Shown here: positions 43,458 through 48,403 of the stretch, in pieces
Layout: the number at the start of each line of letters is the position of its first letter
Position numbering within the stretch: the first letter of the stretch is position 1
Origin: Escherichia coli
Lineage (GTDB): Bacteria > Pseudomonadota > Gammaproteobacteria > Enterobacterales > Enterobacteriaceae
NCBI RefSeq assembly: GCF_050920415.1
Contig: NZ_CP169309.1
Strand: one strand, 5' to 3'
Length of the DNA: 64,000 nt
The notes under the pieces: model-generated
Database searches by the model: none
The model's input: only the letters and a program-made list of their open reading frames with translations
What the model was told of the DNA's origin: nothing
Program-made: the position numbers and the translations under genes

Positions 43458-44299
43458 TTGAGAACCGTCCGTGGCTGACAATATTCAGCCATACCATGCT
43501 GATCCTCGGGATCGCGGTGATCCTCTTCCCGCTGTACGTGGCGTTTGTCGCGGCGACGCTGGATAAACAGGCCGTCTACGCCGCGCCGATGACGCTCATC
43601 CCCGGCACGCATCTGCTGGAAAATATCCACAACATCTGGGTGAACGGGGTAGGCACAAATAGCGCGCCGTTCTGGCGGATGTTGCTTAACAGCTTCGTGA
43701 TGGCGTTCAGCATTACGCTCGGCAAAATTACCGTCTCGATGCTCTCGGCATTTGCCATTGTCTGGTTTCGTTTTCCGCTGCGTAACCTCTTCTTCTGGAT
43801 GATTTTTATCACCCTTATGCTGCCGGTTGAAGTGCGTATCTTCCCGACAGTAGAAGTCATCGCCAACCTGAAAATGCTTGACAGCTACGCTGGTTTAACG
43901 CTGCCGCTGATGGCCTCTGCGACCGCTACTTTCTTGTTCCGCCAGTTCTTTATGACGCTGCCGGATGAGCTGGTGGAAGCGGCGCGGATCGACGGTGCAT
44001 CACCAATGCGTTTCTTTTGCGACATCGTTTTTCCGCTGTCGAAAACCAATCTGGCGGCGCTGTTTGTGATCACTTTTATTTACGGCTGGAACCAGTATTT
44101 GTGGCCGTTGTTGATTATTACCGATGTTGATCTCGGCACCACCGTGGCAGGAATCAAAGGGATGATCGCTACAGGCGAAGGCACCACGGAATGGAATTCG
44201 GTGATGGCGGCGATGTTGTTAACGCTTATCCCTCCGGTGGTGATTGTTTTAGTGATGCAGCGTGCCTTCGTGCGCGGCCTGGTCGATAGTGAGAAATAA
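43454..44299 (+). CDS. ugpE: sn-glycerol-3-phosphate ABC transporter permease UgpE
   Basis: 281-aa hydrophobic ORF, ATGA overlap with ugpA. Confidence 0.95.
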
Positions 44300-44300
44300 G

Positions 44301-45371
44301 ATGGCAGGACTGAAATTACAGGCAGTAACCAAAAGCTGGGATGGCAAAACCCAGGTCATTAAACCGCTGACCCTTGATGTGGCGGATGGCGAATTTATCG
44401 TGATGGTCGGGCCGTCTGGCTGCGGGAAATCCACGCTGCTGCGCATGGTTGCCGGGCTGGAGCGGGTCACCGAAGGCGATATCTGGATTAACGACCAACG
44501 CGTGACCGAAATGGAGCCGAAAGATCGCGGGATTGCGATGGTGTTCCAGAACTACGCGCTTTATCCGCATATGAGTGTCGAAGAAAACATGGCGTGGGGG
44601 CTGAAAATTCGCGGCATGGGCAAGCAACAAATTGCCGAGCGTGTTAAAGAAGCGGCGCGCATTCTGGAGCTGGACGACCTGCTCAAGCGCCGTCCGCGTG
44701 AGCTTTCTGGCGGTCAGCGTCAGCGTGTAGCGATGGGCCGCGCGATTGTGCGCGATCCGGCGGTGTTCCTGTTTGATGAGCCGCTCTCTAACCTCGATGC
44801 CAAGCTGCGCGTGCAGATGCGCCTTGAGCTGCAACAACTGCACCGTCGCCTGAAAACGACTTCACTCTACGTTACTCACGATCAGGTTGAGGCGATGACG
44901 CTCGCTCAGCGGGTTATGGTGATGAACGGCGGCGTTGCCGAACAGATTGGCACGCCAGTTGAAGTCTACGAAAAGCCCGCCACTCTGTTTGTGGCGAGTT
45001 TTATCGGCAGTCCGGCGATGAACCTGCTGACAGGCCGCGTGAATAACGAAGGCACGCATTTCGAACTGGATGGCGGTATCGCGCTACCGCTAAACGGTGG
45101 CTACCGTCAGTATGCCGGGCGTAAAATGACTCTTGGCATTCGCCCGGAACATATTGCGTTAAGCTCGCAGGCAGAAGGCGGCATACCGCTGGTGATGGAC
45201 ACGCTGGAGATCCTCGGCGCAGATAACCTGGCGCACGGACGCTGGGGCGAACAGAAGCTGGTGGTGCGACTGGCGCATCAGGAGCGCCCGACGACAGGCA
45301 GCACGCTGTGGCTGCATCTGCCGGAAAATCAGCTGCATCTTTTTGATGGTGAAACAGGACAACGAGTATGA
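44301..45371 (+). CDS. ugpC: sn-glycerol-3-phosphate ABC transporter ATP-binding protein UgpC (356 aa)
   Basis: [15 protein letters not shown]...; Walker [10 protein letters not shown], signature LSGGQRQR. Confidence 0.9.
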
Positions 45372-46111
45372 GTAACTGGCCTTATCCCCGCATCGTCGCC
45401 CACCGTGGCGGCGGTAAACTGGCCCCGGAAAACACCCTGGCGGCAATCGACGTTGGGGCAAAATACGGTCATAAGATGATCGAATTTGACGCGAAGTTAT
45501 CGAAAGATGGTGAGATCTTCCTGCTTCATGACGACAATCTCGAACGCACCAGCAACGGCTGGGGCGTCGCGGGCGATCTGAACTGGCAGGATTTACTGCG
45601 CGTGGATGCAGGCAGTTGGTACAGCAAAGCGTTTAAAGGTGAGCCGCTGCCGTTGCTTTCGCAGGTGGCGGAACGCTGCCGTGAACATGGGATGATGGCA
45701 AATATTGAAATCAAACCCACCACTGGCACTGGTCCATTAACGGGCAAAATGGTATCGCTGGCGGCGCGCGAACTGTGGGCTGGTATGACGCCGCCGCTGC
45801 TGTCATCGTTTGAGATTGATGCTTTAGAAGCCGCACACCAGGCTGCACCGGAACTGCCGCGCGGTTTGTTGCTGGATGAGTGGCGCGACGACTGGCGCGA
45901 ACTGACCACGCGGCTGGGCTGCGTCTCTATTCATCTCAATCATAAGTTGCTCGATAAAGCGCGAGTGATGCAGTTGAAAGACGCTGGATTACGGATTCTG
46001 GTTTATACCGTCAACAAACCCCAGCGTGCGGCAGAGTTGCTGCGCTGGGGCGTGGATTGCATCTGTACCGATGCGATTGATGTGATTGGCCCGAACTTTA
46101 CGGCCCAATAG
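45368..46111 (+). CDS. ugpQ: Glycerophosphodiester phosphodiesterase UgpQ
   Basis: 247-aa ORF; GDPD-family N-terminus ([19 protein letters not shown]). Confidence 0.95.
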
Positions 46112-46538
46112 TTTTCAACGGAATATCAGGCTGCGGCGTGCTGGGCTGATTCAGCATGTCGCCGTTTCTCCTCTCCGGCAACATATGCTGCTGATTCAAC
46201 GAACTATCCGGATTACGGTTGCTGTTTAACATCCCGCCGTTGGTGTTGGGCAGCATTTGCTGCCGGGCGGGATTTAGCTCCCCCGGCTGTGACTGCAATA
46301 CCCGCTGCGAGTTGCTATTAAGCTGATTTTCTAAATGCTGCTGTTGTAATTGCGTCTGAGTTTTCAGTTGCTGATTCAGCATCCCTTTTTGCTGGATTTG
46401 CTGCGTTTGCATTTGAGTTTGCATCCGCTGCTGGCTGGGGATCTGATACCCCGGCTGGTTAGGGTTGTTCAGAGTATTAATGGGCTGTGCAAAGCCGACA
46501 AAAGGCAGGAGTGCCGTCAAAAGCAGAAGTCGTTTCAT
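46098..46538 (-). CDS. yhhA: Gln-rich secreted protein YhhA (DUF2756)
   Basis: 146-aa ORF with signal peptide [17 protein letters not shown] and low-complexity Q-rich body; 3' end overlaps ugpQ 3' end by 14 nt. Confidence 0.75.
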
Positions 46539-46657
46539 CGCGTATCCTCCTCTGAAGATATTCTTTAAGTTTACTCCTTTCCTGCAATCATCAGGATTAA
46601 TTCAGAGTTATATACCAGGCTTAGCTGGGGTTGCCCCTTAATCTCTGGAGTATAACG

Positions 46658-48403
46658 ATGATAAAACCGACGTTTTTACGCCGGGTGGCTATTGCTGCTC
46701 TGCTCACAGGAAGTTGTTTTAGTGCTGTCGCCGCGCCACCTGCGCCGCCGCCAGTCTCGTATGGCGTGGAGGAGGATGTCTTCCATCCGGTACGCGCGAA
46801 GCAGGGGATGGTAGCATCTGTGGACGCCACTGCCACTCAGGTGGGGGTAGATATCCTTAAGCAGGGCGGGAATGCCGTTGATGCTGCCGTGGCAGTGGGC
46901 TACGCGCTGGCGGTAACACATCCGCAGGCAGGGAATCTGGGCGGCGGCGGTTTTATGCTGATCCGCACTAAAGATGGCAATACCACCGCCATCGATTTCC
47001 GCGAAATGGCACCCGCCAAAGCGACCCGCGATATGTTCCTTGATGATCAGGGCAACCCGGACAGCAAAAAATCTCTCACTTCGCATCTTGCTTCTGGCAC
47101 ACCCGGTACGGTAGCGGGCTTCTCGTTGGCGCTGGAGAAATACGGCACCATGCCGCTGAACAAAGTTGTGCAGCCTGCGTTTAAACTGGCACGCGATGGT
47201 TTTATCGTTAACGATGCGCTGGCAGACGATCTCAAAACCTACGGCAGTGAAGTGCTACCAAATCACGAAAACAGCAAAGCTATCTTCTGGAAAGAGGGCG
47301 AACCGCTGAAAAAGGGCGACAAGCTGGTACAGACGAATCTGGCAAAGAGCCTGGAGATGATTGCCGAAAACGGCCCGGATGAATTCTACAAAGGCACGAT
47401 AGCGGAACAGATCGCCCTGGAGATGCAGAAAAACGGTGGCTTGATCACTAAAGAAGATTTAGCGGCCTATAAAGCGGTCGAACGTACACCAATAAGTGGC
47501 GATTATCGCGGGTATCAGATTTACTCCATGCCACCGCCATCCTCCGGCGGGATCCATATCGTACAGATCCTCAATATTCTGGAAAACTTCGATATGCAGA
47601 AATACGGCTTTGGCAGCGCCGATGCGATGCAAATCATGGCAGAAGCGGAGAAATACGCCTACGCCGACCGCTCGGAATATCTTGGCGACCCGGATTTTGT
47701 CAAAGTACCGTGGCAGGCGCTGACCAATAAAGCCTATGCCAAATCTATTGCTGATCAAATCGATATCAATAAAGCGAAGCCATCCAGCGAAATTCGCCCC
47801 GGCAAGCTTGCGCCTTATGAGAGTAATCAAACTACCCATTACTCTGTAGTGGATAAAGACGGTAACGCGGTGGCGGTGACCTATACGCTGAACACCACCT
47901 TCGGTACGGGTATTGTCGCGGGTGAGAGCGGTATTCTGCTTAATAATCAGATGGATGATTTCTCCGCCAAACCGGGCGTACCGAACGTTTACGGGCTGGT
48001 GGGTGGTGATGCTAACGCTGTCGGGCCGAATAAACGCCCGCTGTCGTCGATGTCACCAACCATTGTGGTCAAGGATGGTAAAACCTGGCTGGTCACCGGA
48101 AGCCCAGGTGGTAGCCGGATTATCACCACTGTGCTGCAAATGGTGGTGAACAGCATCGATTATGGCATGAATGTCGCCGAAGCGACCAATGCGCCGCGTT
48201 TCCACCATCAGTGGTTGCCGGACGAGCTGCGTGTCGAGAAAGGATTTAGCCCGGATACGCTCAAGCTGCTGGAAGCAAAAGGTCAGAAAGTGGCGCTAAA
48301 AGAGGCGATGGGCAGTACACAAAGCATTATGGTTGGGCCGGACGGCGAATTGTATGGCGCTTCCGACCCACGTTCGGTAGATGATTTAACGGCGGGGTAT
48401 TAA
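46658..48403 (+). CDS. ggt: Gamma-glutamyltranspeptidase Ggt
   Basis: ATG with GGAG SD; signal peptide MIKPTFLRRVAIAALLTGSCFSAVAA; autoprocessing-site region ...NQTTHYSVVD. Confidence 0.95.
   Translation: MIKPTFLRRVAIAALLTGSCFSAVAAPPAPPPVSYGVEEDVFHPVRAKQGMVASVDATATQVGVDILKQGGNAVDAAVAVGYALAVTHPQAGNLGGGGFMLIRTKDGNTTAIDFREMAPAKATRDMFLDDQGNPDSKKSLTSHLASGTPGTVAGFSLALEKYGTMPLNKVVQPAFKLARDGFIVNDALADDLKTYGSEVLPNHENSKAIFWKEGEPLKKGDKLVQTNLAKSLEMIAENGPDEFYKGTIAEQIALEMQKNGGLITKEDLAAYKAVERTPISGDYRGYQIYSMPPPSSGGIHIVQILNILENFDMQKYGFGSADAMQIMAEAEKYAYADRSEYLGDPDFVKVPWQALTNKAYAKSIADQIDINKAKPSSEIRPGKLAPYESNQTTHYSVVDKDGNAVAVTYTLNTTFGTGIVAGESGILLNNQMDDFSAKPGVPNVYGLVGGDANAVGPNKRPLSSMSPTIVVKDGKTWLVTGSPGGSRIITTVLQMVVNSIDYGMNVAEATNAPRFHHQWLPDELRVEKGFSPDTLKLLEAKGQKVALKEAMGSTQSIMVGPDGELYGASDPRSVDDLTAGY

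Follow-up and report, generated by a model that had tools for sequence, protein, structure and literature searches.

The window analysed here is a 64,000-nt stretch of Escherichia coli DNA in which yhhA, an ATG-started ORF of 146 codons plus TAA, lies between a divergent ggt and a convergent ugpQ (Table 1). Its product scores well above the curated cut-offs that define the DUF2756 family, both against PF10956 (198.3 bits vs a cut-off of 21, residues 1-105) and, over its full length, against the NF007675/PRK10350 equivalog profile (263.8 bits vs a cut-off of 136). RefSeq carries the label 'DUF2756 family protein' yhhA, next to ugpQ, in a strain with 100% identical sequence as well as in K-12, and the names that an earlier note had given to the two genes are thus correct. 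So is its claim of a 14-nt convergent overlap between their stop regions, which is exact to the base. The K-12 MG1655 counterpart (b3448, NP_417905.1) is the same gene, with a product of 146 aa that is 97% identical and differs by five amino-acid changes; there too it is flanked by ggt and ugpQ, and the overlap (b3448/b3449) is equally 14 nt long. The window nevertheless represents a divergent E. coli lineage, with a 4.1-kb region that is 94.5% identical to K-12 at the DNA level.

Table 1. Features of the yhhA-ugpQ locus, with window positions and the evidence for each.
Feature	Position	Strand	Basis
ugpQ, glycerophosphodiester phosphodiesterase, last gene of the ugp operon	45368..46111	+	PF03009 190 bits, NF006989 456 bits
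Terminator-like hairpin CCCCAGCG...CGCTGGGG followed by TTTGTTGA, inside ugpQ	46010..46051 (hairpin 46018-46051)	-	putative function
14-nt overlap between the convergent stop regions of yhhA and ugpQ	46098..46111	.	sequence, K-12 comparison, 79 loci
yhhA CDS, DUF2756 family	46098..46538	-	ORF, family profiles, RefSeq annotation, dN/dS
Disordered tail, codons 91-146, two degenerate ~25-aa units	46101..46268	-	repeats; pLDDT <50
Terminator-like hairpin with T-rich tail, inside yhhA codons ~123-136	46133..46172 (hairpin 46133-46162)	+	scan; putative function
Gln-rich segment, predicted single long polar alpha-helix, codons 34-82	46293..46439	-	AlphaFold2
Best-conserved motif of mature YhhA, codons 18-38	46425..46487	-	mean identity 0.85 to reference
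Predicted Sec signal peptide, codons 1-17, cleavage before Q18 (GFA|QP)	46488..46538	-	n-, h- and c-region features; predicted site
Shine-Dalgarno AGGAGG, 7 nt before ATG	46546..46551	-	purine-rich SD conserved in 14 genera
Candidate -10 TAAACT then TAA, sigma-S-like	46568..46573	-	invariant across 14 genera; tentative assignment

yhhA is a real protein-coding gene that is conserved in Enterobacteriaceae. Of 5426 complete E. coli genomes, 5424 carry the region. Seven pairwise comparisons were informative, and in six of them (with E. coli, E. whittamii, Escherichia sp. E1V33, E. albertii and Citrobacter) dN/dS was 0.03-0.11, which is indicative of purifying selection and on a par with ugpC, ugpQ and ggt. 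Over an 801-nt query from the locus, identity to most E. coli is no more than 90-95%, as against 95-99% for a distant part of the window. This points to a divergent strain lineage rather than to a hypervariable yhhA, since all three genes, ugpQ, yhhA and ggt, share 92-95% identity with other E. coli, and locus-specific hypervariability was thus rejected. The family is narrow: when 1.84 billion representatives were searched with a profile, no more than 80 clusters came back, many of which are fragments. Those listed with an organism name, seven in number, are all from Enterobacterales, and no link of DUF2756 to any other family emerged. Profile searching of the PDB detected no sequence relative at E <= 1, and there were no Rfam matches at E <= 1 in 45300-46900. 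A phage origin was rejected, as a tblastn search of a phage collection gave only a Salmonella chromosomal sequence filed there. Taken as a whole, the best explanation of the locus, of which we are confident, is that yhhA encodes a Gln-rich protein, predicted to be exported, and forms with ugpQ a convergent pair overlapping at the 3' ends. The gene and its overlap are already on record, and the finding is in this sense an ordinary one.

The YhhA protein, its export and its expression

Inspected by rule only, the N-terminus of YhhA has the features of a signal peptidase I substrate of the Sec pathway. K2 and R3 precede a hydrophobic core of 13 residues, whose mean Kyte-Doolittle value is 2.44, and positions -3/-1 of the predicted cleavage site hold small residues, while the protein has no Cys, hence no lipobox, and no twin-arginine motif. 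A17-Q18-P19 is invariant across 22 diverse family members from several genera. YhhA would thus enter the periplasm by the Sec pathway and be cut after Ala17. The signal peptide that the earlier note had described is recognizable by its positive n-region, its hydrophobic core and its small -3/-1 residues, but the word 'secreted' used there is better read as exported across the inner membrane, with a probable periplasmic location. We found in the literature no published test of YhhA localisation, signal-peptide cleavage or function.

The mature protein, predicted to be of ~14.7 kDa, basic (pI ~10) and very hydrophilic (GRAVY -1.32), is rich in Q (22.5%), N (13.2%), P and L (10.9% each), contains 5.4% M and lacks C, F and W altogether. 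Its Gln enrichment is extreme (binomial P = 4e-13 vs a background of 4.4%), and among the other 58 ORFs in the window with 150 aa or more the Q fraction peaks at 10.9%. Five xML(N/P) motifs (residues 53, 95, 103, 119 and 128) and a repeat tail complete the picture, so that the Gln-rich low-complexity body with repeated units, also part of the earlier description, is fully recovered. The conserved motif at codons 18-38, whose mean identity was computed over 73 family members with identities to the window protein below 80%, is invariant among E. coli length variants, and residues 18-82 as a whole are 74-85% identical across genera. For a Gln-rich low-complexity protein, YhhA is thus unusually tightly conserved, which shows only that its exact sequence matters.

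AlphaFold2 predicts a helix over codons 34-82 with pLDDT of ~70-83, the remainder of the protein being below 50 and the mean 58; overall confidence is low, and a Gln-rich sequence is easily modelled as a helix. This segment contains MQTQMQTQ, and the rare in-frame indel alleles of E. coli yhhA fall within it. A coiled-coil or amphipathic helix was rejected, since the segment lacks a heptad pattern and has a low hydrophobic moment (0.22-0.39). The tail that follows is built of two units of the form QQ(H)MLPxxxNG(G/D)MLN..., which are 42% identical to each other by BLASTP (E = 4e-4) and correspond to direct DNA repeats with a spacing of 72-81 nt, and it ends in PLKTIGP. It is missing in short distant homologues.

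Upstream of yhhA, a consensus scan detected no sigma-70-type promoter. The candidate sigma-S-like -10 element lies in a spacer whose K-12 equivalent, between ggt and yhhA, holds a genomic-SELEX peak for in vitro binding of the RpoS holoenzyme (PMC5493296), and yhhA is up 2.5-fold at the growth-phase transition on entry to stationary phase, alongside rpoS (PMC2241611). The gene is also up in multiple stresses (PMC9501238) and is induced 5.6- to 9.9-fold by a LolCDE inhibitor, that is under envelope stress (PMC5105897). The protein itself has been detected (PMC9927464; PMC9731836), including in Salmonella (PMC4265081), and is named in a figure key together with OmpC, Pal, SlyB, SodC and ZraP in a qualitative proteomic study of Shiga-toxin-producing E. 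coli (PMC9731836). An absence of yhhA expression, the outcome that had been named as fatal to the original description, is therefore contradicted by published transcript and protein data.

The convergent junction with ugpQ

At the junction, the end of ugpQ (...TTT ACG GCC CAA TAG) is antisense to that of yhhA (...ACT ATT GGG CCG TAA). The order ggt <- yhhA -> <- ugpQ, found at the orthologous position in K-12, was followed through 80 Enterobacteriaceae genomes, 79 of which carry both yhhA and ugpQ. The convergent arrangement spans the family, and the stop regions overlap in 66 of the 79 loci, by 4 (the commonest size), 7, 9, 14, 17 or 20 nt; the remaining 13 loci, together with short distant homologues that keep ugpQ downstream, have instead a gap of 5-114 nt. 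Conserved in K-12, near-universal in E. coli and predominant in the loci surveyed, the arrangement is not due to chance. However, because the size of the overlap varies and some loci have a gap, no particular overlap length is required.

Since the coding sequences overlap, an overlap of the full-length mRNAs is unavoidable. The transcript overlap that had been deduced from the coding overlap follows in this way, and it has been reported independently in K-12, where yhhA-ugpQ belongs to a core set of 165 convergent 'excludons' recovered from half or more of 58 RNA-seq data sets (PMC12288877). The pair has the defining property of this class, opposite-strand neighbours with overlapping transcripts, by virtue of its coding overlap in the window and of the RNA evidence from K-12. 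With both stop codons lying inside the partner gene, each mRNA has to end within the other gene, and if it did so at the only terminator-like hairpins present (46133-46172 and 46010-46051), the predicted 3' ends would be complementary over ~160 nt, which is consistent with the published class. Most yhhA and ugp transcripts could nonetheless be truncated.

Of the two hairpins, that on the ugp strand (folding dG ~ -20 kcal/mol) is conserved in Escherichia and Citrobacter, and that on the yhhA strand (-20 to -24 kcal/mol) has a stem kept across 17 sequences from 12 genera, with a variable T-tract. Covariation support is essentially nil for both, compensatory changes affecting 1 of 22 pairs in the former and 0 of 13 in the latter, and both arms are coding in each case. 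The yhhA-strand stem is conserved because it is coding, and the peptides encoded, GDML/STPQ in YhhA and PQR/RWG in UgpQ, would be able to explain the conservation of the hairpins. The T-tracts of both are weak and variable.

Whether the junction is a regulatory device is a matter of interpretation. That the coding overlap has arisen neutrally from the compactness of the convergent junction, not as a tuned device, is a reading we hold only tentatively. Somewhat less probable still, we think, is that the overlap is a selected excludon in which sigma-S/stress-driven yhhA and phosphate- or carbon-starvation-driven ugp interfere, one damping the other, by polymerase collision or by RNase III, which would cleave the RNA duplex of ~160 nt. 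The persistence of the arrangement would speak for selection: apart from the many overlapping loci, the convergence of DUF2756 genes with ugpQ extends from Escherichia to the short distant homologues on metagenome contigs, even with a different upstream neighbour, and short members of similar kind occur in Erwinia. Membership of the core K-12 excludome and the placement of the hairpins, which lets each transcript run 50-90 nt into its partner, point the same way. However, overlap length has not been conserved, a conserved synteny can exist with no function, the excludon list was defined from coverage alone (PMC12288877), the hairpins have no covariation support beyond coding constraint, and in the literature mentioning yhhA we found neither reciprocal-expression data for the pair nor mutually exclusive expression or RNase III-dependent processing.

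Possible roles of YhhA and comparison with known systems

The protein has been said to be a 'validated EPEC effector', a claim whose primary source we could not trace. Under such a scenario, attaching/effacing E. coli would use YhhA as a type III secretion effector, with S/TQ and QS/T clusters that mimic substrates of host ATM-family kinases, and the window protein does have seven S/TQ and four QS/T sites. Such pairs are, however, expected by composition in a protein with 22% Gln, and the classical cleavable Sec-type signal peptide predicted here, with its invariant A-Q-P, would run contrary to type III export. In addition, yhhA is a core chromosomal gene, found in K-12 and in many genera not known for LEE-type secretion, and it occupies a conserved housekeeping locus rather than a pathogenicity island or prophage. 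The effector scenario is therefore hardly credible. Scarcely better placed is the idea that YhhA works with its divergent neighbour Ggt, a periplasmic gamma-glutamyltransferase, as a Gln-rich substrate, inhibitor or partner. Both proteins are predicted to be periplasmic, ggt DNA adjoins yhhA in 78 of the 80 loci, and conservation of the 119-nt divergent spacer is strong in an alignment of 14 genera. Distant DUF2756 members have, however, a pirin-family gene upstream instead of ggt, with ugpQ still downstream, and since they lack an upstream ggt, the link is one of lineage-specific synteny. Moreover, Ggt needs a free alpha-amino and a free alpha-carboxyl group on its gamma-glutamyl donor, which peptide-bound Gln does not have, so that the Gln residues of YhhA would by established enzymology be unsuited as donors.

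A role as a stress-phase periplasmic binder or protectant acting through short linear motifs is possible, and we put it forward as a suggestion rather than as a probable function. A more elaborate version, in which the Q/N helix of a stress-induced protectant self-associates as a polar zipper or condensate, the ML tail binds envelope clients and the embedded ugp hairpin makes the C-terminal codons dual-purpose (protein and RNA structure), appears improbable. If it were true, YhhA would be the periplasmic counterpart of Q/N-rich proteins that phase-separate or behave like prions. Prion-like domains are stretches of at least 60 aa with a strong enrichment of Q/N and few charged residues or Pro; the best 60-aa window of YhhA (residues 25-84) is 47% Q/N, holds K, R and E and is predicted to be helical, and Pro makes up 10.9% of the protein.

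As it stands, the original observation is a correct reading of an annotated gene pair with a catalogued transcript overlap, and it matters little. The residual value of YhhA lies in its being a core gene under strong purifying selection, with an RpoS/stress link and proteomic detection. The junction, for its part, is a compact natural case of terminator-like hairpins lying within the partner's coding sequence, and could serve as a test bed for the termination of convergent overlapping genes.

Among known systems, hydrophilins and periplasmic disordered proteins of the Asr type are small, stress-induced hydrophilic proteins of E. coli. YhhA shares with them its small size, a signal peptide, high hydrophilicity, a mostly disordered chain and induction by stress or in stationary phase. 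There is, however, no sequence relationship, and YhhA is rich in Gln, Asn, Pro and Leu, not in Gly, Lys or Ala. Hydrophilins in the strict sense have more than 6% Gly and a mean hydrophilicity above 1, and assignment to them was rejected, as mature YhhA reaches this hydrophilicity but has 5.4% Gly. With bidirectional intrinsic terminators (bioRxiv 10.1101/2022.10.23.513370 and work cited there), the junction shares the constraint that both transcripts must terminate in a very short space. It is not one of them, since these consist of a single GC-rich hairpin between an upstream A-tract and a downstream T-tract, which terminates both strands, whereas yhhA/ugpQ has two hairpins separated by ~80 nt; both lie within the partner's CDS and have a T-rich tail on one side only. 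The pair also resembles mscL-arfA (PMC10070815) and the rest of the 165 ExcludonFinder pairs (PMC12288877), which are likewise convergent genes with mRNAs overlapping at their 3' ends. For mscL-arfA an antisense regulatory effect has been reported, whereas for yhhA-ugpQ the report is of coverage overlap only; on the other hand, yhhA-ugpQ goes beyond overlapping mRNAs in that its coding sequences overlap as well.

Identity of the locus and lineage of the strain

The minus-strand product of this convergent pair, YhhA, matches the Pfam family DUF2756 (PF10956) with 198 bits (cut-off 21) and, over its full length, the NCBIfam equivalog PRK10350 with 264 bits (cut-off 136), while the plus-strand product is the UgpQ glycerophosphodiester phosphodiesterase (456 bits). 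The coordinates of yhhA and the length of its overlap with ugpQ, as read from the sequence in an earlier note, were exact. On the plus strand ugpQ ends with ...TTT ACG GCC CAA TAG and, over these bases on the opposite strand, yhhA ends with ...ACT ATT GGG CCG TAA. E. coli strain MFDS1022581, which is 100% identical to the window, is annotated in RefSeq as ugpA-ugpE-ugpC-ugpQ, yhhA and ggt (the divergent gamma-glutamyltransferase gene), and in K-12 MG1655 yhhA (b3448, 3586943-3587383) and ugpQ (b3449, 3587370-3588113) overlap identically. The ORFs, family matches and K-12 annotation thus confirm the earlier observation and support its interpretation; both genes and their overlap are already standard annotation, and the transcript overlap is already catalogued.

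Features of the yhhA-ugpQ region and segments compared (window coordinates)
Feature	Position	Strand	Basis or remark
ugpQ ORF, 247 codons	45368-46111	+	ORF scan
yhhA ORF, ATG start, 146 codons	46098-46538	-	ORF scan
Convergent coding overlap, 14 nt	46098-46111	both	ORF coordinates
Terminator-like hairpin, 12-13 bp, then GTTTCTCCTC	46133-46162	+ (ugp strand)	dG ~-20 kcal/mol; yhhA codons 126-136
Terminator-like stem CCCCAGCG...CGCTGGGG, then TTTGTTGA	46010-46051	- (yhhA strand)	dG -20 to -24 kcal/mol; inside ugpQ codons
ggt 5' region, in the ggt/yhhA spacer	46604-46668	+	putative stem
ugpC-ggt block, 4.1 kb	44298-48403		94.5% identity to K-12
Comparison segment, 26 kb off	20000-21200		95-99% identity to E. 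coli genomes

The yhhA/ugpQ region was found in 5424 of the 5426 complete E. coli genomes, of which only 12 were ≥99% identical to an 801-nt query, most being 90-95% identical. The source strain represents a divergent lineage, in which the ugpC-ggt block has moved somewhat further from other E. coli than the second sampled segment. Hypervariability of yhhA itself was rejected, since the ugpQ and ggt segments are equally diverged, each of the three being 92-95% identical to typical E. coli. The MFDS1022581 lineage has few close relatives among the 5426 genomes, and its ugpC-ugpQ-yhhA-ggt block may have been imported or may be older.

Anatomy, constraint and range of YhhA

The signal peptide and the glutamine-rich body with repeated units ascribed to YhhA in the earlier note are both upheld. 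The N-terminus is built like that of Sec/signal peptidase I substrates, with n-, h- and c-regions but neither a Cys nor a twin-arginine motif, and A17-Q18-P19 is invariant among aligned family members, consistent with a predicted signal peptide. Mature YhhA (129 aa, ~14.7 kDa, pI ~10, GRAVY -1.32) consists of 22.5% Gln (enrichment P = 4e-13), 13.2% Asn, 10.9% Pro, 10.9% Leu and 5.4% Met, and contains no Cys, Phe or Trp. An AlphaFold2 model based on a 22-sequence alignment displays one long helix (residues 34-82, pLDDT 70-83), in which no heptad or amphipathic periodicity was found, and pLDDT is <50 outside it (mean 58). Sequence search revealed no relative in the PDB. The tail comprises two degenerate ~25-aa units, QQ(H)MLPxxxNG(G/D)MLN..., which are alike as protein (E = 4e-4) and as DNA direct repeats spaced by 72-81 nt; together with KGMLNQ in the helix, they bring the number of xML(N/P) motifs to five. 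One tail unit is missing in E. albertii.

An alignment of E. coli yhhA alleles contains rare in-frame length variants (90-165 aa), in which short direct repeats have led to the loss or duplication of sequence in the central Gln-rich region; residues 1-38 and 117-146 do not vary among them. Proteins of 146 aa predominate by a wide margin (clusters of 220 and 40 member sequences). When 73 family members with <80% identity to the window protein are compared with it, their mean identity is 0.85 for residues 18-38, 0.74 for residues 39-82 and 0.60-0.65 for the tail. Nei-Gojobori dN/dS was 0.03-0.11 in six of seven informative pairwise comparisons (K-12, a second E. coli lineage, E. whittamii, Escherichia sp. 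E1V33, E. albertii and Citrobacter portucalensis/braakii), remaining informative values being 0.16 for Leclercia and 0.18 for Escherichia sp. MOD1-EC7003 (just 19 substitutions). Values for the neighbours in the same comparisons were similar: 0.04-0.09 for ugpC, 0.05-0.09 for ugpQ and 0.02-0.04 for ggt (0.11 in Leclercia). yhhA is a genuine protein-coding gene under constraint.

Searched with a profile, 1.84 billion representative proteins yielded only 80 clusters of the family at E ≤ 0.001. Its members are ~125-165 aa long in Enterobacteriaceae, and 87-110-aa members also occur, e.g. in Erwinia. These share the signal peptide, the Gln-rich helix and an NPSxQR(M/L)Q motif but have no ML tail, the shortest ending just after ...SQPG; the tail is therefore an extra part of the longer form found in Enterobacteriaceae. 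An 87-aa homologue (P0171) is encoded on a metagenome contig (L083, 4001-4264) within a phage-like block, where its gene is flanked by large-terminase and capsid/protease genes, runs on the other strand and adjoins a 4HBT thioesterase gene; the arrangement resembles that of a moron-type insert.

Expression and possible function

In a genomic SELEX study (PMC5493296), RpoS holoenzyme bound within the ggt/yhhA spacer, and an RpoF (sigma-28) holoenzyme peak was reported inside K-12 ugpQ, between yhhA and ugpC (~3587886 after conversion to current coordinates), which could be an internal or antisense promoter. Our alignment of the spacer from 14 genera shows an invariant TAAACT-TAA element ~29 nt upstream of the yhhA ATG, which would be a sigma-S-type -10, and a conserved purine-rich Shine-Dalgarno of the AGGAGG type. 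In the 5' region of ggt, the Shine-Dalgarno CUGG(AG) pairs with an invariant CCAGG, and AUAAC directly before the AUG with GUUAU, both pairings enclosing a small GC hairpin, GGGGUUGCCCC (dG -18 kcal/mol, z = -1.8 in the window). At one base pair, AU is replaced by GC, a compensatory change, in 3 of 14 genera, and the putative leader stem may sequester the ribosome-binding site.

Expression of yhhA rises on LolCDE inhibition (by 5.6- to 9.9-fold; PMC5105897), in multiple stresses (PMC9501238), after rapid acid treatment (PMC2270276; PMC7824302) and at a growth-phase transition (PMC2241611), and proteomic studies of E. coli and Salmonella have detected YhhA (PMC9927464; PMC9731836; PMC4265081). 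Our best guess, a tentative one, is that YhhA is a stress-phase periplasmic binder or protectant acting via conserved linear motifs. YhhA has also been termed a validated EPEC type III effector in a preprint (10.1101/364117), a claim against which its predicted cleavable Sec signal and core-gene status speak.

The convergent junction and its transcript ends

Practically all of 80 species-representative genomes have the order ggt <- yhhA -> <- ugpQ, and yhhA and ugpQ overlap in 66 of the 79 loci holding both, to a variable extent. The overlap is 4 nt (TTAA/CTAA-type common stops) at 41 loci (Citrobacter, Leclercia, Kosakonia, Atlantibacter, Franconibacter), 14 nt at 14 (Escherichia, several Buttiauxella, Dryocola, Cedecea colo), 17 or 20 nt at nine (C. 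amalonaticus, C. sedlakii, Lelliottia) and 7 or 9 nt at two (Kosakonia arachidis, Pluralibacter). Thirteen loci have a gap of 5-96 nt, with one outlier of 284 nt (some Buttiauxella, Cedecea sulfonylureivorans), and no ugpQ was found at one (Intestinirhabdus). Since the YhhA C-terminus PLKTIGP is kept even where the genes do not overlap, the overlap is not what drives its conservation. Short distant homologues also have a convergent ugpQ downstream (gaps of 33 and 114 nt), with a pirin-family gene rather than ggt upstream; this gene order points to an old yhhA-ugpQ partnership and a lineage-specific one with ggt.

Each stop codon lies inside the partner gene, hence each mRNA must end within the other gene. 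The overlap of transcripts that the earlier note had argued for is reported in K-12: yhhA-ugpQ is among the 165 convergent pairs of the MG1655 core excludome, defined by transcript overlap in ≥50% of 58 RNA-seq data sets (PMC12288877). Our preferred but tentative reading is that the coding overlap merely follows from the tight packing of the convergent genes and is neutral; that this excludon (convergent neighbours with overlapping transcripts) has a regulatory role is possible, if somewhat less likely.

No Rfam element was found in the yhhA/ugpQ region. The ugp-strand hairpin is kept in Escherichia and also in Citrobacter, there with the tail TTCTTTTTCTC. In the yhhA-strand hairpin, the T-tract differs with synonymous or conservative codon changes. 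Compensatory pairs number 1 of 22 in the ugp-strand hairpin and 0 of 13 in the yhhA-strand one. Because both stems consist of conserved codons, with so few compensatory pairs, and the T-tract of the second is variable, their role as terminators is putative. Acting as terminators, the two hairpins would generate complementary 3' ends over ~46010-46170. Unlike a bidirectional terminator, in which one hairpin serves both strands, this junction has two one-sided hairpins.
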